The position numbers and the translations under genes are program-made. A DNA stretch of 64,000 bases. Origin: Thermoanaerobaculia bacterium (GTDB lineage: Bacteria > Acidobacteriota > Thermoanaerobaculia > Multivoradales > Multivoraceae). Location: the NCBI GenBank assembly GCA_022823665.1, contig JAJEHN010000037.1, positions 23,531 through 87,530 of the forward strand, written 5' to 3'. Shown here piece after piece: positions 11,990 through 63,502 of the stretch. The stretch's first letter is position 1. Each line of letters starts with the position of its first letter. Below the pieces are notes generated by a model that made no database searches, was not told the origin of the DNA, and saw nothing but the letters and a program-made list of their open reading frames with translations.

Positions 11990-11997
<8 letters not shown>

Positions 11998-23637: not shown

Positions 23638-23653
23638 GGCGCGCTCCTCTCTG

Positions 23654-23678: not shown

Positions 23679-23707
23679 TTCTCCACTGAACCCACCGGGG
23701 CGCCGGC

Positions 23708-24391: not shown

Positions 24392-27213
24392 GCGACCGCA
24401 ACCAGATGAACCAGACTCTGATCGAAACCGCGCAGGCGATCGCCGCGGAGCGGCCGCCGGCCGAAGTCGAGGCCGCCGCGGCCGCACGCGTGCGGCAGGC
24501 GCTGGCCGCCGCGGCCGGCGCGCCCCACGCCGACATCGACGCGAACGCGACGCTGACATCCTGCACCGACTACCAGGCGCGGATGCCGGCCCTGGTCGCG
24601 GGCACGTTGCCGGAGGCCCAGCGCCTCCTGGTGGAGGACCACACCCGCGAGTGCATCCCCTGCCGCAAGCACCTGCAGGCGGTGCGGGCCGGCCGCGCGG
24701 TGGCCGACGTCGCCGGGCCGGCAGCGCCGGCTCGGGTTGGCCGCTACTACGCGGCCGCCGCGGCAGTGGTCGGCGTGGCCGTGGCGGGCGTGTGGCTCAG
24801 CCAGCGGGTGCTCCTGCCGCCCCAGGACGGCATCGTGCAGGTGCGGAGTGTCGATGGCCGGATGTTCACGGCAGGCGACGACCGCGGGGCGGACCTCGTT
24901 CCGCTCGGCCCCGGCGACGCGGTCGACGGCGGTGACCGGATCCGCACCGGCGCGGGCAGCCGCGCGGTGCTCGAACTTGGCGATGGCTCCCGGGTCGAGG
25001 CCGCCGGACTGACCACGTTCCGCGTCGACGCCCGGCGCAGCGGTCATCGTGTGCGGGTCGACCGCGGCAGCGTGATCGTCCAGGCCGCCCAGCAGGAGAA
25101 CGGTTCGCTGATCGTGTCGACCGAGGAGATGCTGGTGGCGGTCAAGGGCACGATCTTCGCCGTCACGCACGGCGTCAAGGGGTCGCGCGTCTCGGTGATC
25201 GAGGGCGAGGTCGAAGTCGAGAAGGGCCGCGAGCGCCACAGCCTGCTGGCCGGCGATCAGTTTCGCAGCCGTCCGACACTGGTGGCGATGACGTTGCAGG
25301 AGGAAGTCGGCTGGAGCCAGGACGCGGATCGCTACCTCGCCTTGCTCGAGGAGTTCAAGTCGCTGCGCAGCGAACTGAACCAGTTGATGGAAGCGGCGCC
25401 GGCGCGCCACTCGACACGGCTGCTCGACCTGATGCCCGCCGACACGAAGGTCTACATGGCGATGCCGAACGCGCCGGCCACGTTGAGCGACCTGTTCGAG
25501 CTCGTGCGGTCGCGCGTCGGCACGAGCGACCTGTTCGCCGAGTGGTGGACCGAGTTCGAAGCCTCCGGCGCGGTCGGGACGATCGACGAAGTGATCGCGT
25601 TGCTGGGCGAACTCGGGGACACGATGGGCGCCGAGACGGTCATCGCGCTCTCCGGCGGCATCGCCGACAACACGGCCCGCCCCCTGCTCGTCACGGAAGT
25701 CTCGGACGCCACCGCCCTGCGGGAAGCGCTCGACGAACACCTGGAGGGACTCGGCGACGCGATGGGCGAGGAGGGCACGCCGGTCATCGTCGAGGATCTC
25801 GATGCGGCGGCCGAGTCGGACGGCGCGCTCCTGGTCTGGATCGCCGACGACCTCGCCGCGGCGTCGCCTTCGCTCGCCGCGCTTCGCACCGTGGCGGCGA
25901 ACCGGGAAGGCGCGACCAACCCGTTCGTCGGTTCGCGGCTGCACGGCCGGCTCGCGGAACGCTATGCCGCCGGCGCGGAGCTGCTGGCCGCGGTCGAACT
26001 GGCGGCCGTGGTGGCCGAACTCGGGGACGGCGAGGAGGCGGACGCCAACGGCTTCGCGTTCAGCGGGCTCGACCACGTCGAGGATCTGGTCGCTTCGCGG
26101 ACCCAGGACGGCGACCGGGCGAACCTCACCGCGACCCTGAGCTTCGACGGCGAGCGGTCGGGGATGGTCTCCTGGCTGTCCGAGCCGGGAACCAACGGCG
26201 CCCTCGACTTCTTCTCTCCCGAGGCGTCCTTCGTCGCCGCCGGCGTGATCGAGGATCCGCTGACGATCTACGACGACTTCCTCGACTTCCTCGCCGACCT
26301 GGGCGGGGAGATGGACGGGCCGCCGGCGGAGATAGAGAGCGAACTGGGCATGTCGATTCGCGAGGACTTCCTGGCGCACCTGGGTGGTGAGTACGCCGCC
26401 GGCATCGACGGTCCGGTCCTGCCCTCGCCGGCGTGGAAGGCGGTTGCGTCCGTCTACGATGCGGAGGGCTTGCAGAACTCGATCGAGACCCTCGCCCGAA
26501 AGGCGAACGACCGGCTGGCGGCGGAGGGAGTGGGCGCGGCGGTCTCGATCGACGAGCAGGAGTCGGGCGGCCGCACGGTCTACCGTCTCTCGATCGAGAT
26601 CGACGACGCGGAGGGCGACGGCGGGGAGGCCGACGAAGGCGACGACGACTCTCTCGAGGGAGTGCTCGAGAGCCTGGTGGAAACTCCCGAGATCTTCTAC
26701 ACGTACTTTGATGGGTACATGGTGAGCGCGTCCAGCGTGGCAACGATCGACACCGCGATCCGGTATCGCGGCAGCGGCGCCTCGCTGACCTCGAGCCAGC
26801 AGTTCCTCGATCTGCTGCCCGAGAACGGCTACGCGGACTTCTCCGCGATGGTCTACAACCGCCTCGCCGAGACGGCCAGCGAACTCTTCGACCTGCTGCC
26901 GACGGAGGTCGTGGGCGACGACCAGCAGGCCGTTGTCCAGGCGATCGAGGAGTCGATCACCAGCCAGGGGGCGTCCCTCTACACGGTGTACGCGGGTCGC
27001 AGCGAGATCGTCGTGACCTCCAGCGGTCCCAGCCTGCTGGCCTTCGCCGGATTGGGGCCGCTGCTCGGTATGCCCGCTCTCCTGGAGGGTCTGGAGGCGA
27101 TGGATGACGCGGCGGAGCCCGAGCCGGAGGCCGAGCCGGGAACCGAGGCGGACGATCAGGTCGCCGGGATTCTGCCCCCATCGGCGAGCAGCGGCCTGAG
27201 GCCCGCCGCCTGA
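24388..27213 (+). CDS. Large membrane-anchored anti-sigma-like protein (zinc-finger, TM, FecR-like, acidic C-domain)
   Basis: HTRECIPC (HxxxCxxC), TM segment, [32 protein letters not shown]; ATGA overlap with sigma. Confidence 0.8.
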
Positions 27214-33199: not shown

Positions 33200-33246
33200 A
33201 GAACCGGGAGCGGCCCCAGGTGCCGGGTGTAGACTCCTGAACTCCA

Positions 33247-34956
33247 ATGCGCGGCACCCGCAGCCTCGTCGTCGTACTGGCGGTAATACTCGCCGGCTTC
33301 GGCCTGTACCGCTTGCTGTCGAACGATTCGGGAAGTGACTCGGCTGAAACCGGGGCGACTCAGGCCGCCGCGAGCACCGACTACGCGGATCTCGTCGCGC
33401 TCTTCGAGGATTTTCGTTCGTTCCAGCAGGGCGGCTCCGGCAACATCCAGTCCTATTCGCAGAGCGGCTGGTTCCTGTCGGACCTTGATACCGCGCCCGA
33501 CTTCTCCGCCACGGCGATGGCGGAGAAGTACGGCGAACTGAGAGCGTTTCAGGAGCGCTTGGAGGCGATCGATCCCACGGGCTGGCCGATCCCGCAACAG
33601 GTCGACTACCAGCTTGTCCGGGCGGAGACGAACGGCTATGAGTTTCAGCACCGGGTGCTCAGCCCATGGTCCAGGGATCCCGGCTTCTACAACGACGTGA
33701 TCGCCACGTTCGCCTGGGTAGCTGAACCGCCTCTGCAGGGGAACGAGGTGGCGGCTCTGCAATCCAGGCTCGGATCCGTACCCGATGTGGTGCGACAGGC
33801 GAAGGAGAATCTCGAAGACTTCTCCCTGATCGCCGCCGATCTGGGCACCCTGGCGATTCTCTCCATTGGAGATACGAGGTCAGCCTACGAATCGCTGGCG
33901 CAGGGCCTGAGGGTTCATCATCCGGAGCTCGTGGCCGACGTCGAGTCGGCGCTGGCCGCCATCGACGACTACGAGGACTGGATACGGGCCAACGAAGATC
34001 GGATGACGGGCACCACGGGTGTGGGCAGGGAGAACTACAACTGGCTGCTCAGGAACGTCTATCTGTTTCCCTACACCTGGGAGGAGATCCGAACGATCGT
34101 CGAACTGGAAGACAATCGCGTGATCACCTTTCAACGACTGGAGGAGCACCGCAATCGCGATGTTCCACCGCTCGTGCCGGTCGGGTCACAACTCGAGTAC
34201 AGGCAAGGCATCGAAGAAGCCGTCGATCACGTGATGAGTTTCCTGCGCGACGAGGAGATCTTCACTGTGCACGATTACCTCGTGCCGGATGACTACTTCG
34301 ACTCGCGGCTCTACGGAAAAGGGTACGCCCTGGAGGATCCCTGGCCCGAGACGCACGACTATTTCTTCAATTTCTCCCACCGGGAAGCGGTGATGGAGAA
34401 CACGCATGAGCTGGTCGGCCACCACTTCGACATGCTCAGGGCAGAGCGGGAGGATCACCCGATCCGCGGCGGAGAGCGGCCGTACAAGATCTCGACGGCT
34501 CGCGACGAGGGGCTGGCGTTTGCCCTCGAGGAACTGCTGATGCATGCGGGCTACCTGGACGGACGGAATCCCCATGGCAGGGAAGTCACCTATGAACAGG
34601 CGGCTTTCCGCACCGTGCGAGCACTCTCCGACATCTACATGCACAGCGGCGACTGGAGTCTGGAAGAAGCGACGCAGTTCTGCATCGACAACGCGCCGCA
34701 CGGCGAGCTGCTGGAGGGCAGCCACCACCTCTGGTTCGAGCTGGACACGACCCTGCGCGGCGTGGGGCACCACATGCTGATGGTCCTGGGGAAGGTCCAG
34801 TTCATGAAGCTGATGCGAGACCGCGCCAATCAACTCGGCGACGACTTCGTCCTGCGGGAGTTCCTGGACGAGGTCTACGCGGCGGGCCAGATCCCCTGGT
34901 CGCTCATCCGGTGGGAGATGACCGGGTACGACGACGAGGTGTCACGACTCTGGTAG
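33247..34956 (+). CDS. DUF885-like secreted protein (putative metallopeptidase fold)
   Basis: N-terminal anchor, W.RDP.FY, HELVGHH, EGLAFALEE, GK..FMKL, LREFLD. Confidence 0.7.
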   Translation: MRGTRSLVVVLAVILAGFGLYRLLSNDSGSDSAETGATQAAASTDYADLVALFEDFRSFQQGGSGNIQSYSQSGWFLSDLDTAPDFSATAMAEKYGELRAFQERLEAIDPTGWPIPQQVDYQLVRAETNGYEFQHRVLSPWSRDPGFYNDVIATFAWVAEPPLQGNEVAALQSRLGSVPDVVRQAKENLEDFSLIAADLGTLAILSIGDTRSAYESLAQGLRVHHPELVADVESALAAIDDYEDWIRANEDRMTGTTGVGRENYNWLLRNVYLFPYTWEEIRTIVELEDNRVITFQRLEEHRNRDVPPLVPVGSQLEYRQGIEEAVDHVMSFLRDEEIFTVHDYLVPDDYFDSRLYGKGYALEDPWPETHDYFFNFSHREAVMENTHELVGHHFDMLRAEREDHPIRGGERPYKISTARDEGLAFALEELLMHAGYLDGRNPHGREVTYEQAAFRTVRALSDIYMHSGDWSLEEATQFCIDNAPHGELLEGSHHLWFELDTTLRGVGHHMLMVLGKVQFMKLMRDRANQLGDDFVLREFLDEVYAAGQIPWSLIRWEMTGYDDEVSRLW

Positions 34957-42817: not shown

Positions 42818-44215
42818 ATGGCCCCTCAGGATCTGCCGGCTGCCCAGCAGTCGGAACTGGTGATTGTCGCCAACACCTTGCCCGTGCGTCGCGAGGAGGT
42901 GGATGGGGAACTGGGCTGGGCGCAGAGCCCCGGCGGCCTGGTCAGCGCCCTGTCGCCGATCGTCCGCGACGCGGGCGGCTGCTGGGTCGGCTGGACCGGC
43001 GGCGCCGACGACGCGCCCGAGCCGTTCCGGCACGAAGGCATCCTGAACGTCGCGGTGCCGGTGTCGGAGGCCGAGGTCGCCGGCTCCTACCAGGGGATGT
43101 GCAACTCGACCCTGTGGCCGCTCTACCACGACGCGGTGCGGCCGCCCGAGTACCACCGGCACTGGTGGAACCCCTACGTCGCGGTCAACCGCCGCTTCGC
43201 CGAGGAGGCCGCTCGCCGCACCGCGCCCGGCGGCAGGGTGTGGATCCAGGACTACCACCTCCAGCTCGTGCCGCGGATGCTGCGCGAGCTGCGGCCGGAC
43301 ATCAGCTCGGGCTTCTTCCTGCACATCCCCTTTCCCCCGATCGAACTGTTCCTGCGCCTGCCCTGGCGGCGGCGGGTGCTCGAGGGGCTGCTCGGGGCCG
43401 ACGTGATCGGCTTCCAGACGCCTGCCGGCGCCTACAACTTCACGCGGCTCGCCGACCGGCTGATCGAGGCCGAGCCTCAGGGGGAGACGATCCGCTACCA
43501 GGGCCGCGACATCCGGGTCGGCGCCTTTCCGATCTCCATCGACACGGACCGCTACGCGAACGCGGCGCTGGCGCCCGAGATCCGGGAGCGGGCCGAACAA
43601 CTCCAGCAGCTTCGTCGCGGGCGGAAGATCATCCTCTCCGTCGACCGCCTGGACTACACGAAGGGCATCGACCTGCGGCTCAAGGCGTTCCTCGAATGGC
43701 TGGGTCGCGAGGACCGGTCGATCCGGGACGCGGTGATGGTCCAGGTCGCCGTGCCCAGTCGCGAGCGCATCTCGGAGTACCAGATCCTGCGGCGCGACGT
43801 GGAGGAACTCGTTGGTCAGATCAACGGCGAGTACGGCGAACTCGGCGTCGTGCCGGTGCAGTACTTCCGGCGCAACCTGCCGTTCGAGGAGCTGATCGCC
43901 TTCTACCTCGTCGCCGACGTGATGCTCGTGACGCCGCTCTGCGACGGCATGAACCTGGTGGCCAAGGAGTACGTCGCCACCCGGCTCGAGGACGACGGTG
44001 TGCTCGTGCTCTCCGAGTTCGCGGGCGCCGCCTCCGAGCTGCCGGACGCCCTGCTGGTCAATCCCCACGACGTGAACGCGATGGCGGCGACGATCGAGCA
44101 GGCGATCACCCTCGACCCGGAGGACGGGGCGCGACGGATGAAGGCGATGCGCGAGGTCGTGCGGCGGCACTCCGTCCACGAGTGGGCCGCCCAGTTCATC
44201 GAGGCGCTGGCCTGA
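42818..44215 (+). CDS. otsA: Trehalose-6-phosphate synthase
   Basis: GGLV.AL, WVGWTG, LWPLYH, WIQDYHL, FFLHIPFP, DRLDYTKGI, DGMNLVAKEY, LSEFAGA; start ATG 42818. Confidence 0.95.
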   Translation: MAPQDLPAAQQSELVIVANTLPVRREEVDGELGWAQSPGGLVSALSPIVRDAGGCWVGWTGGADDAPEPFRHEGILNVAVPVSEAEVAGSYQGMCNSTLWPLYHDAVRPPEYHRHWWNPYVAVNRRFAEEAARRTAPGGRVWIQDYHLQLVPRMLRELRPDISSGFFLHIPFPPIELFLRLPWRRRVLEGLLGADVIGFQTPAGAYNFTRLADRLIEAEPQGETIRYQGRDIRVGAFPISIDTDRYANAALAPEIRERAEQLQQLRRGRKIILSVDRLDYTKGIDLRLKAFLEWLGREDRSIRDAVMVQVAVPSRERISEYQILRRDVEELVGQINGEYGELGVVPVQYFRRNLPFEELIAFYLVADVMLVTPLCDGMNLVAKEYVATRLEDDGVLVLSEFAGAASELPDALLVNPHDVNAMAATIEQAITLDPEDGARRMKAMREVVRRHSVHEWAAQFIEALA

Positions 44216-44220
44216 CGCGC

Positions 44221-45408
44221 ATGGCACGGCCCGTCAGCGACGCCGAAGCGGGGTTCGAGGTAGGGGAGGGCTTCGAACGCTTCTCGCAGAAGGACGACGT
44301 CTTCTGCCGTTCGTTCTGGGACCCCGAGGTGAGGACCTCCCGCTCGGACATGTTCTACGAGACGTACCGCACGCCGGAGCTGCGCTGGCGCCCGGTCGAC
44401 GGATTCACGCGGCGCGACTACGCGCTGCGCAACGCTTCCTGGCACGTCACCGATCTGTTTGCGGAGTTCCGGGGAGACGCCGACCGTCGCGAGGGCTTCC
44501 TCGACCCCTACACGGTGCTCCGTGACGGTCCGGGTCCGCCGGACGAGAGCGATGAACCGGAGGAGGTCCTCGCCGCTCGACTCGCGGCGGATCTCAAGAC
44601 GGCCGCCCGCGCGTTGGGCGCCGACCTGATCGGCATCACCGCAAACGACGACCGTTGGGTGTACACCCACGCGTACTCGCGGGAGACCGAGACGGAGAAA
44701 CCCCAGGAGCTTCCGGGCGAACTCGGGAACGTCGTCGTCATCGCGCAGGCGATGGACCGGGGTCTGGTGGAGACCGTGCCGTCGGCCCTGAGCGGGACGG
44801 CGACGGGGGTCGGTTACAGCAGCGACACGGTGGTGCTGCTCGCGATCGCCCAGTACATCCTGAACATGGGCTACTCCGCGGTGCCGACGATGAACGACAC
44901 GGCTCTGGCGATTCCGCTCGCGATCAAGGCGGGGCTGGGCGAGTACGGCCGTCACGGTCTGCTGATCACGAGGGAGTTCGGCCCCAGGGTGCGGCTCGGA
45001 AAGATCTTCACCGACATGCCCCTGGCGCACGACCGTCCGCTGCGCTTCGGTGTGCGCGAGACCTGCGAGGTGTGCCGTGCGTGTTCGGATGCCTGCCCGC
45101 CGAAGGCCATCGCGATGGACGCGCCGACGGACCGGATCTACAACATCTCCAACATCCGCGGCGTCAGAAAGTGGACGACGGACGCCGAGAAGTGCTTCCG
45201 GTTCTGGTCGAACCAGAACACCGACTGCTCGATCTGCGTCAGGGTCTGCCCCTACAACCGGGACTACTCCAGGCGCTTCAGCCGAATCTGGCGGTGGATG
45301 GCGGGGACCCGTCTGCGCCGGCTCGCCCTCTGGCTCGACCGCCGGAGCGGCCGCGGACGGAGGGTTGAGCCCCAGACGTGGTGGGGGCGCGCCCTGTCCG
45401 GCTGGTAG
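44221..45408 (+). CDS. Reductive dehalogenase-like (RdhA family) cobalamin/2x[4Fe-4S] protein, 395 aa, no TAT signal
   Basis: A...GADLIGI, AGLGEYGRHGLLIT.EFGPRVRL..IFTD.PL..D.P, CxxCxxCxxxCP, KW..DAEKC, Cx10CxxCxxxCP. Confidence 0.82.
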   Translation: MARPVSDAEAGFEVGEGFERFSQKDDVFCRSFWDPEVRTSRSDMFYETYRTPELRWRPVDGFTRRDYALRNASWHVTDLFAEFRGDADRREGFLDPYTVLRDGPGPPDESDEPEEVLAARLAADLKTAARALGADLIGITANDDRWVYTHAYSRETETEKPQELPGELGNVVVIAQAMDRGLVETVPSALSGTATGVGYSSDTVVLLAIAQYILNMGYSAVPTMNDTALAIPLAIKAGLGEYGRHGLLITREFGPRVRLGKIFTDMPLAHDRPLRFGVRETCEVCRACSDACPPKAIAMDAPTDRIYNISNIRGVRKWTTDAEKCFRFWSNQNTDCSICVRVCPYNRDYSRRFSRIWRWMAGTRLRRLALWLDRRSGRGRRVEPQTWWGRALSGW

Positions 45409-45502
45409 GCTTGAACGTAGCGTCCGGCCGCCGAGCGCAGGAGAACAGGAGGAAAGGCCGAACGGAATAGCGACTCTGCCCGTCCCGTTCGGATCCAATG
45501 CC

Positions 45503-46600
45503 ATGTGGATCAAGAAGTACGACCCCGCCCGCTACCTTCCCTCAGACTCCGGGATCGCGCTGCCGAGCCGCGAGCCGACGCCGCGGGACGTCTATATGGA
45601 CCGGCGCAAGTTCGTCGCGGCGGCCGGCCTCGGCATCGCCGCCGCGTCGCCCCTGGCCGCCCAGTTCCGCCTTCGCCAGCAGGTACCGGCGCCTCCTCCG
45701 GCGCCGCCGATTGAGGACAAGCTGAAGCCGGCCCTCGAGAGGCCCGATGTCTACGGCGCCGAGCTCAGCGCGCGGCCCAAGCGCAACGTGAAGTTCGCCA
45801 GTCCGCCGGCAAGCATCGGCGGCGAACTGACGCCGCGCGACGCGGCGGGCAGCCACAACAACTTCTACGAGTTCTATCCCGGTCGTGGCGGCCCGGTGTG
45901 GAAGTTCGCCGGCAAGTTCACCGTCGAGCCGTGGAAGGTCGAGGTCACGGGCCTGTGCGACAACCCGATGACGCTCGATCTCGACGACATCTTCGGCTTC
46001 GAGCACGAGGAGCGGCTCTACCACTTCCGCTGCGTCGAGCGCTGGGCGATGAACGTGCCCTGGAGCGGCTTCCCCCTCAGCAAGCTGATCGAGAAGGCGC
46101 AACCGAAGTCGTCAGCCAGGCATGTCCGTTTCTTCACCGCTCTCAAGAGGGACCAGATGCCGGGCGTCAGGGAGGCCCACTGGTACCAGTGGCCTTACTT
46201 CGAAGCCCTCCGCATGGATGAGGCGATGAACGAGCTGGCTTTCGTCGCCACCGGTATCTATGGAGAGCCTCTGGTCAAGCAGCACGGTGCGCCGCTGCGG
46301 CTCGCGATCCCGTGGAAGTACGGCTACAAGAGCGCGAAGTCGATCGTGAAGATCGAGTTCGTGGCCGAGGAGCCGAAGATCTTCTGGCAGATCCAGCCGC
46401 ACGAGTACGGGTACCTCTCGAACGTGAACCCGAACATCCCGCACCCGCGCTGGAGCCAGGCGACATCTCACTGGCTGCACAACAGCCAGCCGTTCGAGAC
46501 ACCGATCTTCAACGGCTACGGCGAGTACGTCTCGAAGCTCTATCCAGACGAGCCGACGACGATGCAGCGGGCGCTACGGATGGGTCAGGTCGCCCGGTAG
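45503..46600 (+). CDS. msrP: Protein-methionine-sulfoxide reductase catalytic subunit (molybdoenzyme)
   Basis: TAT motif DRRKF, NNFYEF, ERLY.FRCVE.W, EALRMDEAM, GAPLRL..PWKYG.KS.KSIV, NVNP..PHPRWSQ. Confidence 0.93.
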   Translation: MWIKKYDPARYLPSDSGIALPSREPTPRDVYMDRRKFVAAAGLGIAAASPLAAQFRLRQQVPAPPPAPPIEDKLKPALERPDVYGAELSARPKRNVKFASPPASIGGELTPRDAAGSHNNFYEFYPGRGGPVWKFAGKFTVEPWKVEVTGLCDNPMTLDLDDIFGFEHEERLYHFRCVERWAMNVPWSGFPLSKLIEKAQPKSSARHVRFFTALKRDQMPGVREAHWYQWPYFEALRMDEAMNELAFVATGIYGEPLVKQHGAPLRLAIPWKYGYKSAKSIVKIEFVAEEPKIFWQIQPHEYGYLSNVNPNIPHPRWSQATSHWLHNSQPFETPIFNGYGEYVSKLYPDEPTTMQRALRMGQVAR

Positions 46601-54237: not shown

Positions 54238-55635
54238 CTACGGGAGCAGCAGGCGGGCGGCCTTCTCCCCGCACTCGGCGCCGACGGCGATCGCCCGGCT
54301 CAGGCCGACGCCGTGGAGCGCGTTGCCGGCCAGGTAGAAGCCGTCGATCGGGTCCAGGGCGGCCTCGATTCGGGTCACTCGCCGCAGGTGGCCAGGGGCG
54401 TACTGCGGGATGGCGTGCGGCCAGCGGGCGACGCTCGTGTAGGTCGGTTCCGCGTCGATGCCGGCCGTCCGGCGTAGCTCGCGGAGGGTCAGGTCGACGA
54501 GCTGAGCGTCGCCGAGGTCGGCAGCCTCGGGGTCCACGCTGCCTCCGAACATCGAGCGGGTCAGGAACGTGCCATTCGGGCCGCGGCCTCGGAAGGTAGC
54601 GGTCTCGTACTGGCAGCCGAGCATGCGGATGCCTTCGCCGCGGGCGACGAGGAAGCCGTAGGCCGGCTCGATGTGGGCAGCGGCCGCGGCGTCGAAGGCG
54701 GTATGGACGACGGCCATCGGCGGCGACTCGATCTGCCGGAGTTCGGCCGCGGCCTCTGCCGAGACGCCGTCGACGAGATCCGCGGCCGAAGGCAGGTCGG
54801 CCGCTACGACGACTGCATCTCCAGTGACTTCGCCGCCGGACGAAGCGACCCTGAAGCCGCTGCCGCGCCGCTCGATCGCGGTGACCCGCCGGTTGCAGCG
54901 GACTTCGATTCCCGGAAGAGCGCCGACGGCGTGCGGAAAGGCCTGGATGCCGTGGCGAAGTGTCCGGTGCCCTGGCGGCGGAACGCCGCGCCTGCGGCCG
55001 GCGCGCATCGCCTTGAACAGGGAACCGTAGGCCCGTTCCATCGCGACCAGACGCGGAAACGCGGCCGCGGCCGAGAGCTTCCGCGCGTCGCCGGCGAAGA
55101 TGCCGAGGACGACGGGCGAGATGAGGCGCCGGGCCGCCTGCGGCCCCATGCGGCGGGCGGCGAAGTCGTACAGCGACTCGTCTTCGCCGGCGCCGCCCTC
55201 CGCGTCGTCGTCGTGCCGACTCCGCACCAGGGGTTCCAGCGCCAGCCGCGCCAGGCCGAGCGGTCCCAGCATGCCGCTCCTGGCGAAGGCCAGCGGGCTG
55301 CGCCGCAACTCCCGCAGCCTGCCGCCCCGGTAGATGTAGCGTCGGTTCGCCGCCGGTTCCGGCGCCAGCACCTCGCTCTCGAGGCCGCAGGCGGCGATCA
55401 TCTCCCGCACGACCGGCTGATCGTCGAGGAAACCCTGGGGGCCGGTCTCGATCAGGAAGCCGCCGGCCTGTCCGGTCCGGGCCTTGCCGCCGACCTCGCC
55501 GTCCGCCTCGAGCACGAGGATCTCGATCTCGCGGCCGGCGCGCTCCGCTTCGACCGACGCTTTCCAGGCGGCGGCCAGTCCGGAAGGCCCGCCGCCGACG
55601 ACAACCAGGCGGCAGGCCTCCGGCTGTTCGCTCAA
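54238..55635 (-). CDS. hemY: FAD-dependent protoporphyrinogen/coproporphyrinogen oxidase (HemY type)
   Basis: VVGGGPSGLAAA, GGKART, ETGPQGF, GIFAGD, W..AIPQY..GH, AGN...GVG; TTG start by TTGA overlap. Confidence 0.9.
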   Translation of the reverse strand: MSEQPEACRLVVVGGGPSGLAAAWKASVEAERAGREIEILVLEADGEVGGKARTGQAGGFLIETGPQGFLDDQPVVREMIAACGLESEVLAPEPAANRRYIYRGGRLRELRRSPLAFARSGMLGPLGLARLALEPLVRSRHDDDAEGGAGEDESLYDFAARRMGPQAARRLISPVVLGIFAGDARKLSAAAAFPRLVAMERAYGSLFKAMRAGRRRGVPPPGHRTLRHGIQAFPHAVGALPGIEVRCNRRVTAIERRGSGFRVASSGGEVTGDAVVVAADLPSAADLVDGVSAEAAAELRQIESPPMAVVHTAFDAAAAAHIEPAYGFLVARGEGIRMLGCQYETATFRGRGPNGTFLTRSMFGGSVDPEAADLGDAQLVDLTLRELRRTAGIDAEPTYTSVARWPHAIPQYAPGHLRRVTRIEAALDPIDGFYLAGNALHGVGLSRAIAVGAECGEKAARLLLP

Positions 55636-56726
55636 GCGTCCTCCGCCTCGGCGTGGACGGCCTCGACCAGGGCCTGCACCGCCTGAAGCGGCGTTTCCGG
55701 CAGCACGCCGTGTCCCAGGTTCACGATGTGGCCGCGGCGAGGGAGGCTGGCGAGCAGGAGTCCGGTCTCGCGCCGGACCGCCCGTTCGCCGGCCAGGAGC
55801 GCGGCGGGGTCCAGGTTGCCCTGCAGGCAAAGGTCCGGCCGCCGCCGGCGCAGCGCGCCGAGGTCGGTACGCCAGTCGACGCCGAGCGCTTCGCAGGGCA
55901 GACCTGCGTAGTCGTCCACCAACTGGGGCGCGGCGTGGAGGAAGAGGATGCGGGGGACGGCGGCGTCGCCTAGTCGCCGCAGCAGCCGATCGAGGTGCGG
56001 CCGAATCCTCCGCCGCCATTCGGAGCGCGGGAAGAGGCCGGCCCAGGAGTCGAAGACCTGGACCGCGTCGGCGCCGGCCCGGTGCTGCCCGATCAGATAG
56101 CGGGCGCAGAGCCGTCCCAGGCGGTCGAGCAGGGCGTCGAAAGCCGCCGGCTCCTGGTAGGCGAACGCCCGCAGCCGCGGGAAGTCGCGGACGCCGCGAC
56201 CCTCGACCAGGTAGGCCGCGAGGGTCAACGGAGCGCCCGCGAAGCCGAGGAGCGCCGTCTCCGGGACGAGCTCGGACCGCACGATCCGCTGGGCGGCCGC
56301 GACCTCCGGGGCGATCGCGGCTTCGTCGAGGTCGTCGGGATCGGGCAGGGCGGCGACGTCCCGCGCGCTCCGGATCGGCTCGGCGATCACGGGCCCCGGA
56401 TCGAAGCGGAAGTCGACGCCGAGCGCCGGCATGGGCGACATGATGTCCGCGAACGTGATCGCGGCGTCGAACGGGAAGCGCCGGAGCGGCATCAGGGTGA
56501 CTTCGGCCGCCAGTTCAGGGTCGCGCGCGAGGCCGGCGAAGCCGTGGCGCTCCTTGAGTGCCCGGTACTCGGGCAGGATGCGTCCGGCCTGACGCATCAT
56601 CCACAGCGGCCGCCGCGGCGTTTCCTCGAATCGAAGGGCGCGCAGCAGCAGGGGTTCGGCTGGCGGGACGGTGGCGGCGGCCGGGGCGGCAGCAGGCCCG
56701 GCCGCGGTCGTCGGCAGGCCGTTCAC
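55632..56726 (-). CDS. hemE: Uroporphyrinogen decarboxylase
   Basis: P.WMMRQAGRILPEY, AAITFADI, GFAGAP.TL..Y, QVFDSW, QGNLDP, NLGHGVLP; GTG start by GTGA overlap. Confidence 0.95.
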   Translation of the reverse strand: MNGLPTTAAGPAAAPAAATVPPAEPLLLRALRFEETPRRPLWMMRQAGRILPEYRALKERHGFAGLARDPELAAEVTLMPLRRFPFDAAITFADIMSPMPALGVDFRFDPGPVIAEPIRSARDVAALPDPDDLDEAAIAPEVAAAQRIVRSELVPETALLGFAGAPLTLAAYLVEGRGVRDFPRLRAFAYQEPAAFDALLDRLGRLCARYLIGQHRAGADAVQVFDSWAGLFPRSEWRRRIRPHLDRLLRRLGDAAVPRILFLHAAPQLVDDYAGLPCEALGVDWRTDLGALRRRRPDLCLQGNLDPAALLAGERAVRRETGLLLASLPRRGHIVNLGHGVLPETPLQAVQALVEAVHAEAEDA

Positions 56727-58081
56727 TTGCCGGCCGTCCAGCGGGTCGATGGCTCGGAGGGCCTGTCGGCGCGCCGCTGTTCGAGCAGCTCCGGCGCCGC
56801 GGCGGCAAGGAAGGCGTCGACGCCGTCCTGGCCGATCTCGATCGCCACCGCGCGCAGCCCCACGACCGGCAGGTGGCTCAGACGCTTCGCCATCACGGCC
56901 GTCCACTCCCGGAGCGTTTCCCGTTCCGCCTCCGAGAGGCCCGCGAGATCGCCCTGCAGCAGGCGGTCCAGGTTCGCGCCCAGGGAATCCTGGTACTTGG
57001 CGCCGATCGCGCGGATGGCGCCGGCCACCGACCGGGTGGCCATCGCTTCCCGGTAGGCGTCGAGTTCCTCGTCGATCAGCACGCGGGCTTCGGCAGTGCG
57101 CCCGCGCCGGTCGCGGAGGGTCTTCTGGGCCAGTTCATTGATCTGGTCCATGCCGATCCGCTTCAGACCCGCGACGCGGGCGTCGGCTGGAGCGACATCG
57201 GCCGGGATCGCCATGTCGATCACCAGCGGTGAGGCGCCGTACCGGGCGTCGCCGGTCGCGGCCAGGACCGACAGGCACCGCCGATCGACCACCGGCCCCG
57301 GGGCGCCGGTCGAAAACAGTGTTGCGGTCACCGGCGGCGGCTCGGACCGGAACCGGTCGAGGCTCATCGTTTCGACCGCCTTTGCGGATCCGTTCGCCCC
57401 GGTCGCGCCCCCCGTTCTTTCGGCAAGATCGTCGGCCTTCGAGCGCGTGCGGTTGACGAGGACCAGAGGAATGCCGCGAGAGCGCAGCCGCTCCGTACAC
57501 GTCTCGGTCATCGCCGCCACGCCGATCAGCGCCACCGGCCCCGGATGCTCCGCGGCGCGCTCGGTCAACAGGTCGGCGGCAATCTCCGACAGTGACGTGC
57601 GCCCGGCGCCGACCCCAGTCTCCCGGTGGACCCGCTTGCCGGCCCGAAGCGCCGATTCGACCACGCGCCGCAACTCCGGGTCGACCGTACCGCTGGCCGT
57701 CGCCTCGTCGAGCGCGTCGCGCAGTTGCCCGCGGATCTCCCGCTCTCCAGGCTGGGCCGAGTCGAGGCCGGCCGCTACCAGGTACAGGTGCTCGACCGCC
57801 CCTTCCCCTTCCCAGCTCCGGAACACGCGCCGTGCCGCCCCCGCGCCAGCCACCAGCCGCAACAGCTCCCGCCGGCATGACGCCAACGTAGCTCCCGGCT
57901 CCGCCGAGAAAACGAACGCCACCCGGTTGCAAGTGGCGAGGTAGATCAGCCCCTGAGCACCGACCCGCTGCTTCAGCCGCCGCATCTCGGCGGCCCGCCG
58001 CTCATCCGGCATGGTGTACTGCGCGATCTCTTCGGCGCTGGCATACCGCCAGGTCACCGCAACGACACAACAGTTGTCCAT
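56723..58081 (-). CDS. hemA: Glutamyl-tRNA reductase (divergent)
   Basis: LATCNRV, AAGLDS...GE.EI.GQ, RV..ET, NRT, DMAIP.DV; start ATG 58081. Confidence 0.85.
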   Translation of the reverse strand: MDNCCVVAVTWRYASAEEIAQYTMPDERRAAEMRRLKQRVGAQGLIYLATCNRVAFVFSAEPGATLASCRRELLRLVAGAGAARRVFRSWEGEGAVEHLYLVAAGLDSAQPGEREIRGQLRDALDEATASGTVDPELRRVVESALRAGKRVHRETGVGAGRTSLSEIAADLLTERAAEHPGPVALIGVAAMTETCTERLRSRGIPLVLVNRTRSKADDLAERTGGATGANGSAKAVETMSLDRFRSEPPPVTATLFSTGAPGPVVDRRCLSVLAATGDARYGASPLVIDMAIPADVAPADARVAGLKRIGMDQINELAQKTLRDRRGRTAEARVLIDEELDAYREAMATRSVAGAIRAIGAKYQDSLGANLDRLLQGDLAGLSEAERETLREWTAVMAKRLSHLPVVGLRAVAIEIGQDGVDAFLAAAAPELLEQRRADRPSEPSTRWTAGK

Positions 58082-58115
58082 CGGGCGATTCTGACCTAGT
58101 GAGACGCCTGGATTG

Positions 58116-59252
58116 TCACGGTTGTGTCGGCGTCGACGATCCACTCTCGCGCACGCCGCTACGCGGCGGCGCGTCTGATGCCGGCGGGGGCGCCGGCGCA
58201 CCCAGTGTTCGCCACTCGCGGGTGTTGCGGAGGATCAGGTCGGTCAGCGCGTCGAGGTGGTCGGGGCGGTCGTTGAGGCAGGGGATGTAGCGGAGGCGCT
58301 CGCCGCCGGACTCCTCGAAGTAGCCGCGGTTCTCGACCTCGATCTCTTCGAGCGTCTCGATGCAGTCGGCGGAGAAGCCGGGGCAGGCGACGTCGACGTT
58401 CCCGAGGCCGGCCTGGGGCAGCTCGCGCATCGTGGCATCCGTCTTCGGGCCGATCCAGAGTTCGCGGCCGAACTGGGACTGGAACGTGCTGATCACCCGC
58501 TCCGCGTCGATGCCCAGTTCCTCCACCAGCAGGCGTGTCGTCTCCAGGCACTGGCACTGGTAGGGATCGCCGTTGTCGATGTAGCGCTTGGGGACGCCGT
58601 GGTAGGAGAGGACGAGCCGGTCGGGCTCGCCGTCGGCCCAGGTCTCGCGGATGCTGGCGGCGAGGGCGCGCAGGAAGCCGGGGTCGTCGTAGTAGCTGTT
58701 GATCGTGCGCAGTTCCGGCACCCAGCGCCAGCGGCGGAGTTGCCGGGCGAGCATGTCGACCGTGGACGCCGTGGTGGCCGCCGAGTACTGCGGGAAGAGC
58801 GGGAAGAACAGGAGGCGCGTGCATCCCCTGTTGCGGAGTTCGGCGAGCGCGCTTCGGATGGAGGGGGTGCCGTATCGCATCCCGATGGCGACGTGAAAGG
58901 TCGGCTCGCCCGCTCCCTGAGCCTCCCGCAGCCGTCGTTCGATGCCCTCGACCTGCCGTTTGCCGATCGCGAGGAGCGGCGAGCCTTCGTCCGTCCAGAT
59001 CTTCTCGTAGAGCTTCGCGACCCGCTGCGGCCGCGTTGTCAGGACGAACAGGTACAGGATCGGCAGCCACTTCCAGCGCGGCACCTCGGCGATGCGCGTG
59101 TCGCTCAGGAACTGCCGAAGGTAGCGGCGCAGGGCCTTCGGCGTCGGGGCCGCCGGCGTGCCGACGTTGGCGAGCAGGACGCCGATGGCGCGGCGGTCCA
59201 CGGAGGCTTCGACGCGCGGTTCCGGTTCGTAGAGAGATGTGCCGCTGGTCAT
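58116..59252 (-). CDS. hemH: Ferrochelatase
   Basis: GVLL.N.GTP, PL.PQYSAAT, SYHG.P, FQSQFG..WIGP, PGFSADCIETLEEI. Confidence 0.95.
   Translation of the reverse strand: MTSGTSLYEPEPRVEASVDRRAIGVLLANVGTPAAPTPKALRRYLRQFLSDTRIAEVPRWKWLPILYLFVLTTRPQRVAKLYEKIWTDEGSPLLAIGKRQVEGIERRLREAQGAGEPTFHVAIGMRYGTPSIRSALAELRNRGCTRLLFFPLFPQYSAATTASTVDMLARQLRRWRWVPELRTINSYYDDPGFLRALAASIRETWADGEPDRLVLSYHGVPKRYIDNGDPYQCQCLETTRLLVEELGIDAERVISTFQSQFGRELWIGPKTDATMRELPQAGLGNVDVACPGFSADCIETLEEIEVENRGYFEESGGERLRYIPCLNDRPDHLDALTDLILRNTREWRTLGAPAPPPASDAPPRSGVRESGSSTPTQP
58154..58207 (-). repeat. REP-like palindrome translated as part of the HemH C-terminal tail
   Basis: Reverse complement of 58177-58207 is 30/31 identical to 46608-46638; adjacent CGCCGC-TAC-GCGGCG hairpin like that at 39402. 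Confidence 0.88.
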
Positions 59253-59262
59253 GCGTTGCCGG

Positions 59263-60237
59263 TCAGATCCAGTCGCGACGGACCAGGAAGTCGGAGGCGA
59301 GGCGGGCTTCGGGAGTTCCGGGTTCGGGGGCGTAGTCGTAGCGCCAGGCCGCCAGCGGTGGCAGGGAAGCGAGGATGGACTCGGTGCGGGCCCTCGCCTG
59401 CAGTCCGTAGCGCGTGCCGCGGTCGTACACCAGGTTGAACTCCACGTAGCGCCCTCTGCGGTAGAGCTGGAAACAGCGCTCCCGCTCGCCGTATTGCAGG
59501 TCTTTCCGGCGTTCGAGGATGGGCAGGTAGGCGGGCAGGAAGTGATCGCCGATGCTGCGCGCGAAGGCGTAGCAGCGTCCGAACGGGTCGAGCCCGGAGG
59601 GCTGTTCGAGGCGGTTCAGGTCGTCGAAGAAGAGGCCGCCGACGCCGCGCATCTCCTGGCGGTGGGGAAGGTAGAAGTAGTCGTCGCAGGCGGCCTTGTA
59701 GCGGCTGTAGAGACCGTCGCCGAACGGCGCGCAGGCCTCGGCCGCCGTCCGGTGCCAGTGAACCGCGTCCTCCTCGAAGCCGTAGTACGGGGTCAGGTCG
59801 AAGCCGCCGCCGAACCACCAGCCTTCTTCCTCTTCGTCGCCCGTTTCTTCTGGCGAACGGCCTTCCGGCGAATGGGCGATGAAGAAGCGGATGTTCGCGT
59901 GGCTGGTCGGGGCGTAGGGGTTGCGCGGATGGACGATCAGGGAGATCGAGGTCGCCTCGAAGCTCCGGCCCGCGAGCTCCGGCCGCCGTTCGGTCGCCGC
60001 CAGCGGCAGCGAGTCGCCCCGGGAGTGGCTGAAGTTCACCGCCGCCTTTTCGATCACTTCGCCGTCGGTGAGCACCCGCGGCCGGGCGACGCCACGACGC
60101 TCGCCGCGCAACTCGCGGGCGTCGAAGGCGCCGCCATCGACCTCGACCAGGGCGTCGCAGATGCGGTCCTGGAGCTCCCGGAAGTAGGTGGCGACGGTTT
60201 CGGCGCTCGGCTGCCCCGCCGGCGGCTGGGACGTCAC
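59263..60237 (-). CDS. hemF: Oxygen-dependent coproporphyrinogen III oxidase
   Basis: EKAAVNFS, S...[49 protein letters not shown]; GTG start by GTGA overlap. Confidence 0.95.
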
Positions 60238-61532
60238 GGCGCCGGGATCTCCGCCAGCGCTTCGCCGACCGCGCCGGCGAAGCCGGCAAGCGCGTCTTCG
60301 TCGTGGGCGAGCGACAGGAAGCCGACCTCGAACGCGGACGGGGCGAGCATGTAGCCGCGGTCGAGCAGCCCGCGGTGGAGCAGGCCGAAGACCTCGGCCG
60401 TGTTCGGGTGGAAGCGGTCGGCCCGCCGCGGCGGTTCGCCGTCGCCGTAGGCGAGCCAGAAGATCGACCCGCAGCGGACGAGCCGGTAGGGGTGGCCGCT
60501 CGCTTCCAGGACGGGGCCGAGCCCGGCTTCGAGCAGCGCCCCCTGGTCTTCCATCCGCTTCCATCCATCGCCGGCCGCGAGTTCGCGCAGGGTGGCGAGC
60601 CCGCCGGCGACGGCGAGCGGGTTCCCGGACAACGTGCCCGCCTGGTAGACGGGGCCGAGCGGGGAAAGCCGGTCCATGAGCCGCGCCGGACCGCCGTACG
60701 CGCCGACCGGCAATCCGCCGCCGATCACCTTGCCGAGGGTGACCAGATCGGGCTCGATGCCGAGCTGAGCGCCGACGGTGACTCCGGGGACCCGGAAGCC
60801 GCTCAGCACCTCGTCGAAGATCAGCAGTGCGCCGTGCTCGCTGCATAAGCGGCGCAGGAGTCGCAGGTAGTTCGGCCGCTGCACCAGCAGGCCGTTGTTC
60901 GCCGGCAGCGGCTCGACGATCGCGGCCGCGAGCTTCGCGCCATGACGCCGGAACGCCTCTTCCAGGGCCTCCTCGTCGTCGAGCGGCAGGACGATCGTGT
61001 CGCGCGCGGTCGCCGCCGGGATGCCGGCGCTCGAGGCGATCCCGAAGGTAGCGAGACCGCTTCCGGCTTCGACCAGCAGGGCGTCGACGTGGCCGTGGTA
61101 GCAGCCCTCGAACTTGAGCACCAGGTCGCGGCCGGTACATCCGCGGGCGAGCCGGACCGCCGACTGGGTCGCCTCGGTGCCGGAGTTGACGAACCGGATC
61201 TTCTCGATGACCGGCACGAGTTCCTTGACCATCCGCGCCAGTTCGACCTCGCCCTCGTGGGGTGCGGCGAACGAAGTGCCGCGCGCTGCCGCCTCGCGCA
61301 CCGCCTCGACCACGGCCGGGTGGCTGTGCCCAAGCACCAGGGGCCCGAAGGAGCCGACGAAGTCGACATAGCTCCTGCCGTCGACCGAGCGCATGACCGC
61401 CCCTTCGGCCTCGCCGATGAAGGGCGGCGTGCCGCCGACCGCGCGGTATGCCCGCACCGGGCTGTTCACGCCTCCGACCAGGTGGCGCTGCGCCTCCGTC
61501 CAGAGGTCTTCACTGCTTCGTCCGGCGCTCAT
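60234..61532 (-). CDS. hemL: Glutamate-1-semialdehyde 2,1-aminomutase
   Basis: [52 protein letters not shown]. Confidence 0.96.
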
Positions 61533-63392
61533 TCAGTCCCCCTTGGGGTCGGCGCCCACTTCGTCTAGCCACAGGCGTTCGATGCCGGCGGCGGTCGGTT
61601 CCTGTGCGCACTTCACGTTGCCGGCTCCGGCGCTTCGGAGCGCCGCGGCTGTGGCGGCTCCGATCGCCCAGCAGCTTCCCGGCCAGTCCGGGCCGGACGC
61701 TGCGAAGGCGGAAACCGCCGATGGAGCGGTGAAGAGTACGCGGGCGCGGGCCGCTTGCCAACCTTGCGGCCAGTCGAGCTCGTCGTTCGGATGCACGGTG
61801 TAGGCCGGCCAGGCCGTGACCTGGCGGCCCGCCGCCTGGAGCGCCTCGACGAGTGGCGCTCCGCCGCGGGCGGAATGCGGCACGAACAATGGGCAACGCG
61901 GGTCGAGCACCCGAGCCGCGTAGCGGGCGAACTCCTCGCCGCCGGAGGCCCGCGCGGCCAGGTTCGGCGGCACGCCGGCCGCGAGCAGCGCGCGCGCCGT
62001 GCCCTCGCCCAGCGCGCACCACGGCAGCCGGCCCCAGACCGGCTCGCGCGCGGCTCGCTCCGCCACGACGCGCGCGGCGTTCGGCGACGAGACGAGCAGC
62101 CACGGCCACTGGCGTCGCGGGCGGCTCAGGTCGATGCGGTCCGCCGGCCAGGGGGTATCGAAGACCTGGACGGTGGTCGCCGGCAGGGCCGCGACCCGGA
62201 CGGCCGGGTCGAGCCGCCTGGTCAGCCGACGGACAGTCTCTGGACCGGAAGTCACGATCAGGTCCGGCGTCTCCGCACTGGGTGCGCGGGTCTTCTGACC
62301 CGCAGAGAACAGCGCGCCGGCCGTCAGGCCGGCACCGAACTCCGCCAATCCCCGCTCGACCCGCCCGGCCAGGGCGTCGAGCTCGACCGCGCCGTCCGCT
62401 GCTGAAGCCGCTGCACCGACGGCACCCGGTGCCTCCCCGACCGAGGCAGGTTCCCGCCAGTCGTCGGCCGCGATCAGGGCGTGGACCTCGTGCAGTACCG
62501 GCCCTTCGAGGCCGGCGGCGCCCGCGTCCGCCCAGGCCCCAAAGGGCCGCAGACAACCGCCGCCAAGCCGGCCAAGCAGGGAGCGCTCCGCGAAGGCCGC
62601 GGCGCGGCTCGGAGGGTGGTCGAGCGCCGCCATCGCCGCGTGTCCGTCGAGCCGGCCGCCAAGCAGGATCTGGACCGCCAGGGCGCCCTGACCGGGCGCG
62701 CAGGGCCAGGAGCGAAGGTCCAGCCGGAAACCCCGGATAGCGGCGGTTGCAGCGTCGAGCTCGCCACTTCGTGCCAGGCGCAGGACGCCCGCCTCCGCCG
62801 CCAGCAGGGCCTCGATCGCGCCGCTCCGAAGCCACTCCAGCCGTCGCCCCACCGAGCCGCGGACGGCGCAGCAGACGAGGTCCGGCCGCAGAGCCAGCGC
62901 GCCGGCCTGCCGGCGGGGAGACGATGTGCCCAGGCGGGCGCCCGCGGGCAGCGACGCGAACGCTTCGCCAGCGGGTCTGGCGCGGGCCTCCAGGGCGTCG
63001 TCTGCGTGATCGAGCAGTGTCGCGAGTTCCGTCGCCCCGTCACAGGCTTCTGCTTCTCCGGCGGTTGTCAGATCCGGCGCGAACAGCAACAGATCGAACG
63101 GCCGCTCCCGCTCCGGCACCGCCGCGATCACCAGGTCGGGCTCGTCCTCGACCGGCAGGTCCTTCAGCGAGTGGACGACCAGGTCCACGGAGCCGTCGCG
63201 CAGGGCCGCGGTCAGTTCGCCCGTGAACACGCCCTTGGCCTGGGCGAAGCTGCCTCCGAGGCTGCGGTCTCCCTGGGAGGACATGGCTCGAACCGCCGTG
63301 TCCACGCCGAGTTCGCCGAGCCGCCGGGCGACCAGGTCGGCCTGAATCCGCGCCAGTGGCGTCGCCCTGGTGCCGATGACGATCGGGGCCAT
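61533..63392 (-). CDS. hemCD: Hydroxymethylbilane synthase fused to uroporphyrinogen-III synthase
   Basis: IGTR..LA..Q, KGVFT, VHSLKD.P, GTSS.RR, GGGC..P.G; C-terminal HemD-like SSPNA, W.AY, FTAPSAV, AIG..TA..L. Confidence 0.88.
   Translation of the reverse strand: MAPIVIGTRATPLARIQADLVARRLGELGVDTAVRAMSSQGDRSLGGSFAQAKGVFTGELTAALRDGSVDLVVHSLKDLPVEDEPDLVIAAVPERERPFDLLLFAPDLTTAGEAEACDGATELATLLDHADDALEARARPAGEAFASLPAGARLGTSSPRRQAGALALRPDLVCCAVRGSVGRRLEWLRSGAIEALLAAEAGVLRLARSGELDAATAAIRGFRLDLRSWPCAPGQGALAVQILLGGRLDGHAAMAALDHPPSRAAAFAERSLLGRLGGGCLRPFGAWADAGAAGLEGPVLHEVHALIAADDWREPASVGEAPGAVGAAASAADGAVELDALAGRVERGLAEFGAGLTAGALFSAGQKTRAPSAETPDLIVTSGPETVRRLTRRLDPAVRVAALPATTVQVFDTPWPADRIDLSRPRRQWPWLLVSSPNAARVVAERAAREPVWGRLPWCALGEGTARALLAAGVPPNLAARASGGEEFARYAARVLDPRCPLFVPHSARGGAPLVEALQAAGRQVTAWPAYTVHPNDELDWPQGWQAARARVLFTAPSAVSAFAASGPDWPGSCWAIGAATAAALRSAGAGNVKCAQEPTAAGIERLWLDEVGADPKGD
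62276..62303 (+). repeat. REP-like palindrome inside hemCD at the domain junction
   Basis: CACTGGGTGCGCGGGTCTTCTGACCCGC, 27/28 identical to 30828-30855 and 27/28 to the reverse complement of 1893-1920. Confidence 0.9.
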
Positions 63393-63502
63393 CGAACGGG
63401 GATTCTACGGAGCTTCCGTTCGGCGTGCTGGCCTGGAACGCTGGCATAGAGTCGACGCCGGTCTCGCTGTCAGCCGCCTGGAACCGACTGGGAGGACTCG
63501 CC

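Follow-up and report, generated by a model that had tools for sequence, protein, structure and literature searches.

The rdhA-like gene and its locus

The region analysed is a 64,000-nucleotide stretch of contig JAJEHN010000037.1 from a Thermoanaerobaculia bacterium (hereafter the 64-kb window), and the subject of this work is an open reading frame (ORF) within it that resembles rdhA, the gene of the RdhA-type reductive dehalogenases. A first-pass annotation, made from the sequence alone, had described an RdhA-type protein of 395 amino acids (aa) here, and both the translation and a match to the reductive dehalogenase profile TIGR02486 (E=1.6e-46) agree with that description. The protein is probably a soluble, cytoplasmic and non-respiratory reductive dehalogenase of the halophenol type, belonging to a short class that lacks a twin-arginine (Tat) leader, as judged from its sequence, a structural model and analogy with assayed relatives.

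The gene follows otsA and precedes msrP (Table 1), an arrangement that had also been read correctly from the sequence. The stop codon of otsA (TGA, 44213-44215) is separated from the ATG at 44221 by five bases (cgcgc), and the two genes are probably co-transcribed and translationally coupled. The spacer to msrP is 94 nt long. Scanning 42.3-46.8 kb for promoters and terminators revealed no promoter-like site; the one terminator-like hairpin returned lies within the coding region and was not above chance expectation. Rfam and tRNA scans of the 64-kb window gave no match, cobalamin riboswitch included. The GC content at third codon positions (GC3) of the rdhA-like gene is 0.90, resembling that of its neighbours.

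Sequence motifs and predicted localisation

No Tat leader was found at the N-terminus, which has no RRxFxK followed by a hydrophobic region; instead the sequence MARPVSDAEAGFEVGEGFERFSQ opens directly at the FxRFxQ motif. Eight columns of this region (F18, F21, Q23, D26, R30, F32, W33 and D34) are invariant across the clade, and in Tat-bearing relatives the same motif lies 50-70 residues further in. Homologues with unrelated upstream genes share the same start position. As the adjacent MsrP does carry a Tat leader, the organism uses this pathway, and the absence of a leader from the rdhA-like protein is therefore meaningful.

Hydropathy analysis detected no membrane segment in the protein; the best 19-residue Kyte-Doolittle mean was 1.5, in an internal helix at residue 203, away from the N-terminus. 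The Pfam scan showed the RdhA core and a ferredoxin part only, with no fused reductase. No small membrane-protein ORF that could be rdhB lies beside the gene, either in the window or at those related loci that were inspected, and here there is no room for one because otsA ends 5 nt upstream and msrP begins only 94 nt downstream. N-terminus, hydropathy, spacing and Pfam scan thus uphold the earlier statement that Tat leader, rdhB and fused reductase are all missing. The two cysteine motifs named at the same time, CxxCxxCxxxCP and Cx10CxxCxxxCP, match exactly at C282-P293 and C325-P344, with the layouts C282-x2-C285-x2-C288-x3-C292-P293 and C325-x10-C336-x2-C339-x3-C343-P344. An alignment of 76 relatives shows no variation at C282, C285, C288, C325, C339 or C343, and at least 90% of the sequences retain C292 and C336.

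Family assignment, fold and active site

The TIGR02486 match scored 159.6 bits (curated cut-off 160.35) and that to PF13486 scored 21.9 (curated cut-off 24.3); PF13486 is among the precomputed Pfam domains of relatives at 94-96% identity (P0015 and P0017). Sequence matches to proteins of solved structure were strongest for TmrA (8q4h, E=1.9e-49) and PceA (4uqu, 2.5e-48), followed by NpRdhA (1.9e-24) and two entries of the epoxyqueuosine reductase QueG (4e-11 and 5e-7). At the sequence level, homology to the RdhA family is beyond doubt.

The AlphaFold (AF2) model used was built on the 76-sequence alignment, which includes Roseobacter-group relatives, and reached pLDDT 92 and pTM 0.92. A first model from the close clade only (40 sequences, 66-94% identical) had pLDDT 56 and TM ~0.47 and was discarded. 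A Foldseek search of the PDB gave 46 matches at E<=0.001, the top 36 of which were RdhA structures (TMq 0.66-0.79, with 0.79 for 8q4h_A) and the other ten QueG (0.31-0.40).

A gap-free phmmer alignment to PceA pairs Thr242 with T195, Tyr246 with Y199, Asn272 with N225, Arg305 with R258 and Trp376 with W329, while that to NpRdhA pairs Tyr426 with Y199, Lys488 with R258 and Arg552 with W329. Y199, N225, R258 and W329 are invariant across the 76 aligned relatives. The roles of the PceA active-site residues, Tyr246 included, have been described (PMC5500849). On sequence and model the protein is therefore an RdhA with a predicted PceA-like active-site constellation and not a QueG. The proposal of a non-respiratory, cytoplasmic enzyme of the RdhA family was in this way supported, as family, fold and active site match and Tat leader, RdhB and membrane helices are absent.

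Table 1. Features of the rdhA-like gene, its neighbours and the haem genes of the 64-kb window
Feature	Position	Strand	Basis or remark
rdhA-like gene	44221..45408	+	395 aa + stop codon; translation, profile and structure matches
N-terminal region, aa 1-119	44221..44577	+	begins at conserved FxRFSQKDDxFxRxFWD motif, in respiratory RdhAs located behind the Tat leader
Presumed cobamide-binding catalytic core, aa ~120-275	44578..45045	+	PF13486 over aa 171-268; gap-free against PceA 204-306; pLDDT mostly >90
Tyr199 codon	44815..44817	+	equivalent to PceA Tyr246 and NpRdhA Tyr426 (proton donor); invariant in 76 sequences
Arg258 codon	44992..44994	+	equivalent to PceA Arg305 and NpRdhA Lys488; invariant
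First [4Fe-4S] motif CEVCRACSDACP, aa 282-293	45064..45099	+	Fer4_16 and Fer4_7 matches over aa 281-346
Second, split [4Fe-4S] motif C325-x10-CSICVRVCP, aa 325-344	45193..45252	+	spacing as in PceA and TmrA alignments
otsA (trehalose-6-phosphate synthase)	42818..44215	+	PF00982 E=1e-140; 465 aa according to gene callers
msrP	45503..46600	+	NF003767 349 bits; Tat leader DRRKFV
Protoporphyrinogen oxidase	54241-55680	-	TIGR00562 230 bits, cut-off 97.85
hemF (oxygen-dependent coproporphyrinogen oxidase)	~59263..60270 (start codon not fixed)	-	NF003727 387 bits, cut-off 297

Relationship to assayed Tat-less enzymes

An exhaustive search of representatives clustered at 50% identity showed that the nearest relatives are all Tat-less and start at the same FxRFxQ motif, and that Tat-bearing RdhAs first appear at ~37-41% identity. 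The phylogeny proposed as a check on the first-pass annotation was run as a rough neighbour-joining (NJ) distance tree, not a maximum-likelihood one, and it placed the protein with the Roseobacter-type Tat-less RdhAs; the clade of the window protein and the Roseobacter group fall, along with one Acidimicrobiia and one Caldilineaceae sequence, into a single wholly Tat-less clade. The few sequences flagged 'TAT' inside it are N-terminally truncated fragments in which the regular expression had matched the conserved DRREGF motif.

Members of this Roseobacter branch have been assayed. Ros_A3X954 from Roseobacter sp. MED193 is a Tat-less reductive dehalogenase that converts 2,6-dibromophenol to 2-bromophenol with a kcat of 1.1 s-1 (Li et al. 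2026, PMC13101508). Its cofactors were characterised as cobalt and iron, along with acid-labile sulfur, and it is highly sensitive to O2 in vitro (PMC13101508). The enzyme from Pararhodobacter aggregans (A0A2T7UTL8), 72% identical to Ros_A3X954, takes 2,4,6-triiodophenol to phenol (PMC13101508). Ng & Silver 2024, as cited in PMC13101508, is also a source for these two short Tat-less RdhAs. In Ros_A3X954, PF13486 lies at residues 174-269 and the Fe-S motifs are CDICTKCADACP at 283 and CAICMRVCP at 337 (PMC13101508).

Over residues ~4-390 the window protein shares 46.5-51.2% identity (median 49%) with 119 cluster representatives of the Roseobacter group; named relatives belong to Ruegeria, Sulfitobacter, Falsiruegeria and Tropicibacter, among other genera. 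In over half of these representatives (67/119), CDICTKCADACP at 283 and CAICMRVCP at 337 agree exactly with the strings and positions reported for Ros_A3X954.

Distribution and conservation of the clade

The nearest genomes are metagenome-assembled genomes (MAGs) of the Thermoanaerobaculia 'Candidatus Multivorans' (Acidobacteriota). The genome matches bear sponge- and coral-MAG names, and among the sequencing runs that hold the gene, sponge metagenomes make up nearly all, while some are coral or marine. Two tandem von Willebrand factor A (VWA)-domain genes of the window (18967-20709 and 20713-22476, both on the minus strand) match the Acidobacteria-specific TIGR03436 (acidobact_VWFA) and agree with the acidobacterial placement.

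A protein search returned more than 100 clusters (at 90% identity) that were 66-100% identical to the query and nearly all 387-450 aa long, and a genome scan confirmed 583 encoded relatives. Among the best 80 of these 583, relatives in Acidobacteriota are 92-98% identical, those in Gemmatimonadota (Longimicrobiales, 'Ca. Palauibacter' and pelagic UBA Gemmatimonadales) 62-76%, and those in Chloroflexota (Caldilineaceae, Anaerolineales and Promineifilaceae) 63-65% over the best segment; tblastn gave 61-66% for Chloroflexota. The clade is thus common to the three phyla at 61-98% identity, and is mostly associated with sponges and corals but also pelagic. Mean column identity among 13 members from two phyla was 68%. 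Far from being an isolated case, the gene is one member of a large and very conserved clade. The public annotation of the clade is unreliable, as its members appear inconsistently as 4Fe-4S protein, ferredoxin, reductive dehalogenase and epoxyqueuosine reductase (QueG), the last used for several by JGI.

Some relatives depart from this picture. Certain Gemmatimonadota MAGs hold two copies of the gene on different contigs (L043/L045 in Ca. Palauibacter denitrificans SB0661_bin_40, and L057/L059 in RHO3_bin_72). One 685-aa relative (P0121) has two RdhA-like stretches and is possibly a tandem fusion, and a 469-aa variant (P0100), which covers only 73% of the query at 96% identity, may reflect a frameshift or fusion.

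In the acidobacterial lineage the locus is fixed. The order otsB<-, otsA->, rdhA-like->, msrP-> was kept in 19/19 loci, and over the same number of species-level genomes the rdhA-like protein is 92-98% identical, a conservation equal to that of otsA. The downstream position of msrP is confined to this lineage, and otsB, otsA and msrP do not accompany the gene in other phyla, where neighbours are conserved within lineages only. In Longimicrobiales the gene has an ABC exporter (ABC_membrane+ABC_tran) before it at 26 loci and a DUF885 gene after it at 18; in one example, locus L001, the flanking genes are at 6098-7915 and 9263-10954. The window itself also has a DUF885 gene, at 33241-34953, ~9 kb upstream of the rdhA-like gene. 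De novo clustering of neighbouring ORFs and inspection of the loci found no neighbour conserved across phyla, and the gene is therefore functionally stand-alone. An apparent cross-phylum clustering of neighbours with otsB was rejected as an artefact, as it consisted of antisense shadow ORFs, lying in high-GC DNA across the gene's 5' end. Nesting of the acidobacterial clade within Gemmatimonadota sequences in the NJ tree suggests horizontal transfer of the gene.

Transcription of the locus

Contigs assembled from metatranscriptomes, ~95% identical to the window and so from closely related strains, cover parts of the rdhA-like gene at a depth of ~3-6, where contig depth is a poor measure of expression and carry-over of DNA into the RNA libraries is possible. 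Two of the RNA contigs, X23 (44099-44536) and X24 (43928-44268), cross the junction of otsA and the rdhA-like gene. Coverage of msrP was at a depth of 10-39, by RNA contigs that begin at 45427-45510, in the intergenic spacer. These data are consistent with a weak co-transcription of the rdhA-like gene with otsA, and msrP seems to have its own, stronger transcript.

Haem genes and oxygen context

The presence of an O2-dependent HemF in the window, named in the first-pass annotation, was confirmed by a profile match above its cut-off (Table 1). It is part of a compact haem-biosynthesis cluster at 54241-63404 on the minus strand, made up of protoporphyrinogen oxidase, hemE, hemA, hemH, the O2-dependent hemF, hemL and a hemC/hemD fusion. 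The hemF gene is context for an aerobic lifestyle and not part of the dehalogenase system.

Other genes of the window

Downstream, msrP has no msrQ alongside, and a major facilitator superfamily (MFS) transporter on the opposite strand comes next. Beside the trehalose genes, a GPP34 gene (Golgi phosphoprotein 3-like, PF05719; 39463-40164, minus strand) is kept in all the acidobacterial loci; this family has been flagged as associated with sponge symbiosis in Actinobacteriota (2025 paper, PMC11706023). The partial ORF that runs off the end of the window (63380-64000, plus strand) matches Peptidase_M2, the angiotensin-converting-enzyme family, a eukaryote-like protein in a sponge symbiont.

A long series of genes for aromatic amino-acid and histidine biosynthesis occupies 767-16554 on the plus strand (an aroD/aroE fusion, hisD, hisA/hisF, trpE, trpD, trpF, trpB and trpA). 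Two very long ORFs, both also on the plus strand, were noted at 16116-18953 (946 aa), which has no family match, and at 23638-27210 (1191 aa), which has a FecR domain only. Their GC3 is somewhat below that of neighbouring genes, and portions of them may be non-coding.

Proposed function and alternative readings

As a probable dehalogenase, the protein would use a cobamide in its core, fed by two [4Fe-4S] clusters, to strip the halogen reductively from an organohalide, and Tyr199, held by Arg258, would protonate the dehalogenated carbon as in PceA. The electron donor would most likely be a low-potential ferredoxin or flavodoxin that has its own, separate gene, and the enzyme would be uncoupled from the respiratory chain. 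Its role may be in detoxification, or in the first step of catabolism, of natural halogenated phenolics in the sponge or marine habitat. Such compounds are the likely substrates because assayed relatives turn them over and because sponges and marine algae produce bromophenols and bromotyrosine derivatives. Bromo- and iodophenols are candidates, as possibly are halotyrosine-derived metabolites of the host, and the enzyme would probably be active when the tissue is poor in O2. The earlier suggestion that natural organohalides are possible substrates is supported, by analogy, by the source of the sequence in sponge metagenomes and by the fact that its closest characterised relatives are Tat-less marine halophenol debrominases and deiodinases (PMC13101508).

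Several observations weigh against this interpretation. The scores fall marginally under the curated TIGR02486 and PF13486 cut-offs. Biochemistry in the clade is limited to the Roseobacter-group branch, ~49% identical to the subclade of the window protein, and at this identity substrate specificity cannot be transferred; moreover, the figure of ~49% to the Ros_A3X954 type is by proxy, measured on sequences with the published motif strings. The 61-76% identity across three phyla is unusually high for RdhAs and, together with the lack of a conserved partner gene, would also fit a physiological substrate that is not halogenated. No gene for cobalamin synthesis or uptake and no cobalamin riboswitch was found within the 64-kb window (~50 ORFs scanned), nor was a queG, and these negatives apply to the window only and not to the rest of the genome. 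Lastly, the genome carries O2-dependent haem enzymes, whereas Ros_A3X954 is highly O2-sensitive in vitro; the two could be reconciled if the enzyme works in a cytoplasm that is reducing, or at the times when sponge tissue is known to go anoxic.

The high conservation leads directly to a competing explanation, that the protein is a cobamide- and Fe-S-dependent reductase of the RdhA superfamily acting on a conserved non-halogenated physiological substrate, as a housekeeping analogue of QueG. The mean column identity of 68% and the identity of 61-76% between phyla would fit it, and the single copy in most genomes, the lack of any conserved partner or regulator, the narrowly missed reductive dehalogenase cut-offs and the inconsistent public annotations all point the same way; it is nevertheless unlikely, since the nearest assayed relatives, of the same architecture at ~49% identity, are true dehalogenases (PMC13101508), the PceA-type Tyr/Arg/Asn/Trp set around the cobalt is invariant, and the habitat is rich in natural organobromines. 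A respiratory enzyme with an unrecognised membrane partner or export route is very unlikely: the protein does score higher with PceA and TmrA (168-172 bits) than with NpRdhA, a catabolic enzyme (89 bits), and its best fold match is 8q4h_A, but it has no membrane helix and no Tat motif even though the adjacent MsrP has one, the Pfam- and NCBIfam-scanned neighbours are trehalose and methionine-sulfoxide genes with no rdhB or other rdh accessory gene among them, and the entire surrounding clade is Tat-less.

Still less credible is the reading that a horizontally acquired gene is here decaying or has lost its function. Its nesting within Gemmatimonadota and the low depth in RNA libraries might be read in that way, yet the frame is intact, no catalytic residue and none of the eight cluster cysteines is missing, the 92-98% identity is maintained over 19 species-level genomes at a fixed locus, and GC3 is like that of the neighbours. 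The identification as QueG, which would agree with the name that JGI gives to several relatives and with a weak TIGR00276 match over the ferredoxin part, is effectively refuted by profile, structure-sequence and fold scores. The comparison of RdhA and QueG profiles that the first-pass annotation had called for gave 159.6 bits for TIGR02486 and 68 bits for TIGR00276, the latter over aa 223-349 only and against a cut-off of 200, and the QueG structures matched at E-values of 4e-11 and 5e-7 with TMq 0.31-0.40, compared with ~1e-49 and 0.66-0.79 for RdhAs.

A broader reading, doubtful but conceivable, is that the tight three-phylum clade represents not a niche dehalogenase of xenobiotics but a near-core enzyme with one conserved natural substrate, its gene having been passed horizontally among symbiont phyla. 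The substrate could then be a halogenated amino-acid derivative of host or marine origin, such as bromo- or iodotyrosine, subject to detoxification or salvage, or even a non-halogenated metabolite. Were this true, abundant facultatively aerobic symbionts would carry out halogen turnover in sponges besides the anaerobic Desulfoluna, an organohalide respirer on which work on sponge debromination has centred (PMC12203066). The ecogenomic description of Palauibacterales makes no mention of a dehalogenase (PMC10469786), and a search for literature on 'Ca. Multivorans' and on the rdhA-like clade in sponge MAGs found none. What is new with respect to the literature searched is that three phyla have this clade in their dominant sponge-symbiont lineages. 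If the window protein is an active dehalogenase as proposed, the clade would give marine halogen cycling a further, non-respiratory route, possibly of quantitative importance, and would offer a soluble single-subunit dehalogenase scaffold for enzymology.

Comparison with known enzymes

Among solved structures the best matches are PceA of Sulfurospirillum multivorans (4uqu) and the TmrA/RDH complex (8q4h). The window protein shares with these the constellation Tyr246/Arg305/Asn272/Trp376 (PceA numbering) and the same two Fe-S motifs, but is only ~26-30% identical to them and lacks their Tat leader, RdhB and respiratory context. At the position of PceA Tyr382 it has Asp335, and this Asp is kept by at least 90% of the 76 relatives in the alignment.

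With the catabolic enzymes NpRdhA (4ras/6zy1), BhbA and the self-sufficient JtRdhA it has in common that these are cytoplasmic, Tat-less and non-respiratory. The fold of the catalytic module is similar to that of the NpRdhA type (TMq 0.69-0.74) and the equivalent of Tyr426 is kept. These enzymes differ in being ~700 aa or more in length; they contain a further, vestigial B12-binding domain, and some of them also have a reductase at the C-terminus. The match to NpRdhA scores only 89 bits at ~21% identity and extends over its residues 351-614 only, and the Lys488/Arg552 pair of NpRdhA is replaced by Arg258/Trp329, as in PceA. QueG belongs to the same superfamily and likewise has cobalamin and two [4Fe-4S] clusters, but the window protein is well under the TIGR00276 cut-off and the similarity in fold is confined to part of the protein.

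A closer counterpart by published description is the 'simplified cytosolic type', a group of RdhA-like proteins from metagenomes of cold seeps that have a mean length of 395 aa and lack the vestigial second cobalamin-binding domain (PMC12219181). The window protein resembles these in its predicted cytosolic location, its length and the absence of that domain; they differ in having been reported mainly from Desulfobacterota and Chloroflexota of anoxic sediments, in a paper without biochemistry (PMC12219181). The premise of the first-pass annotation that catabolic RdhAs usually have a reductase partner was too narrow and the novelty had been overrated, as this short leaderless class had already been described (PMC12219181) and the branch at ~49% identity has been assayed.

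The likeness is greatest to the Ros_A3X954 type. Relatives in cultured Roseobacter-group genera are 389-393 aa long, compared with 395 aa here, and neither side has a Tat leader, RdhB or a fused reductase. The PF13486 segment (174-269 there, 171-268 in the window protein) nearly coincides, the Fe-S motifs are displaced by one residue (283/337 and 282/336), and the Tyr, Arg, Asn and Trp around the cobalt are invariant in both groups. They differ in sequence (~49% identity) and in their hosts, which are Alphaproteobacteria for the Ros_A3X954 type and Acidobacteriota, Gemmatimonadota and Chloroflexota for the subclade of the window protein. In length, architecture, motif positions and shared clade the protein therefore agrees with the short, Tat-less, cytosolic class of RdhAs; this kind of enzyme is already described, with one branch of the same clade characterised, and the window protein adds a member to it.

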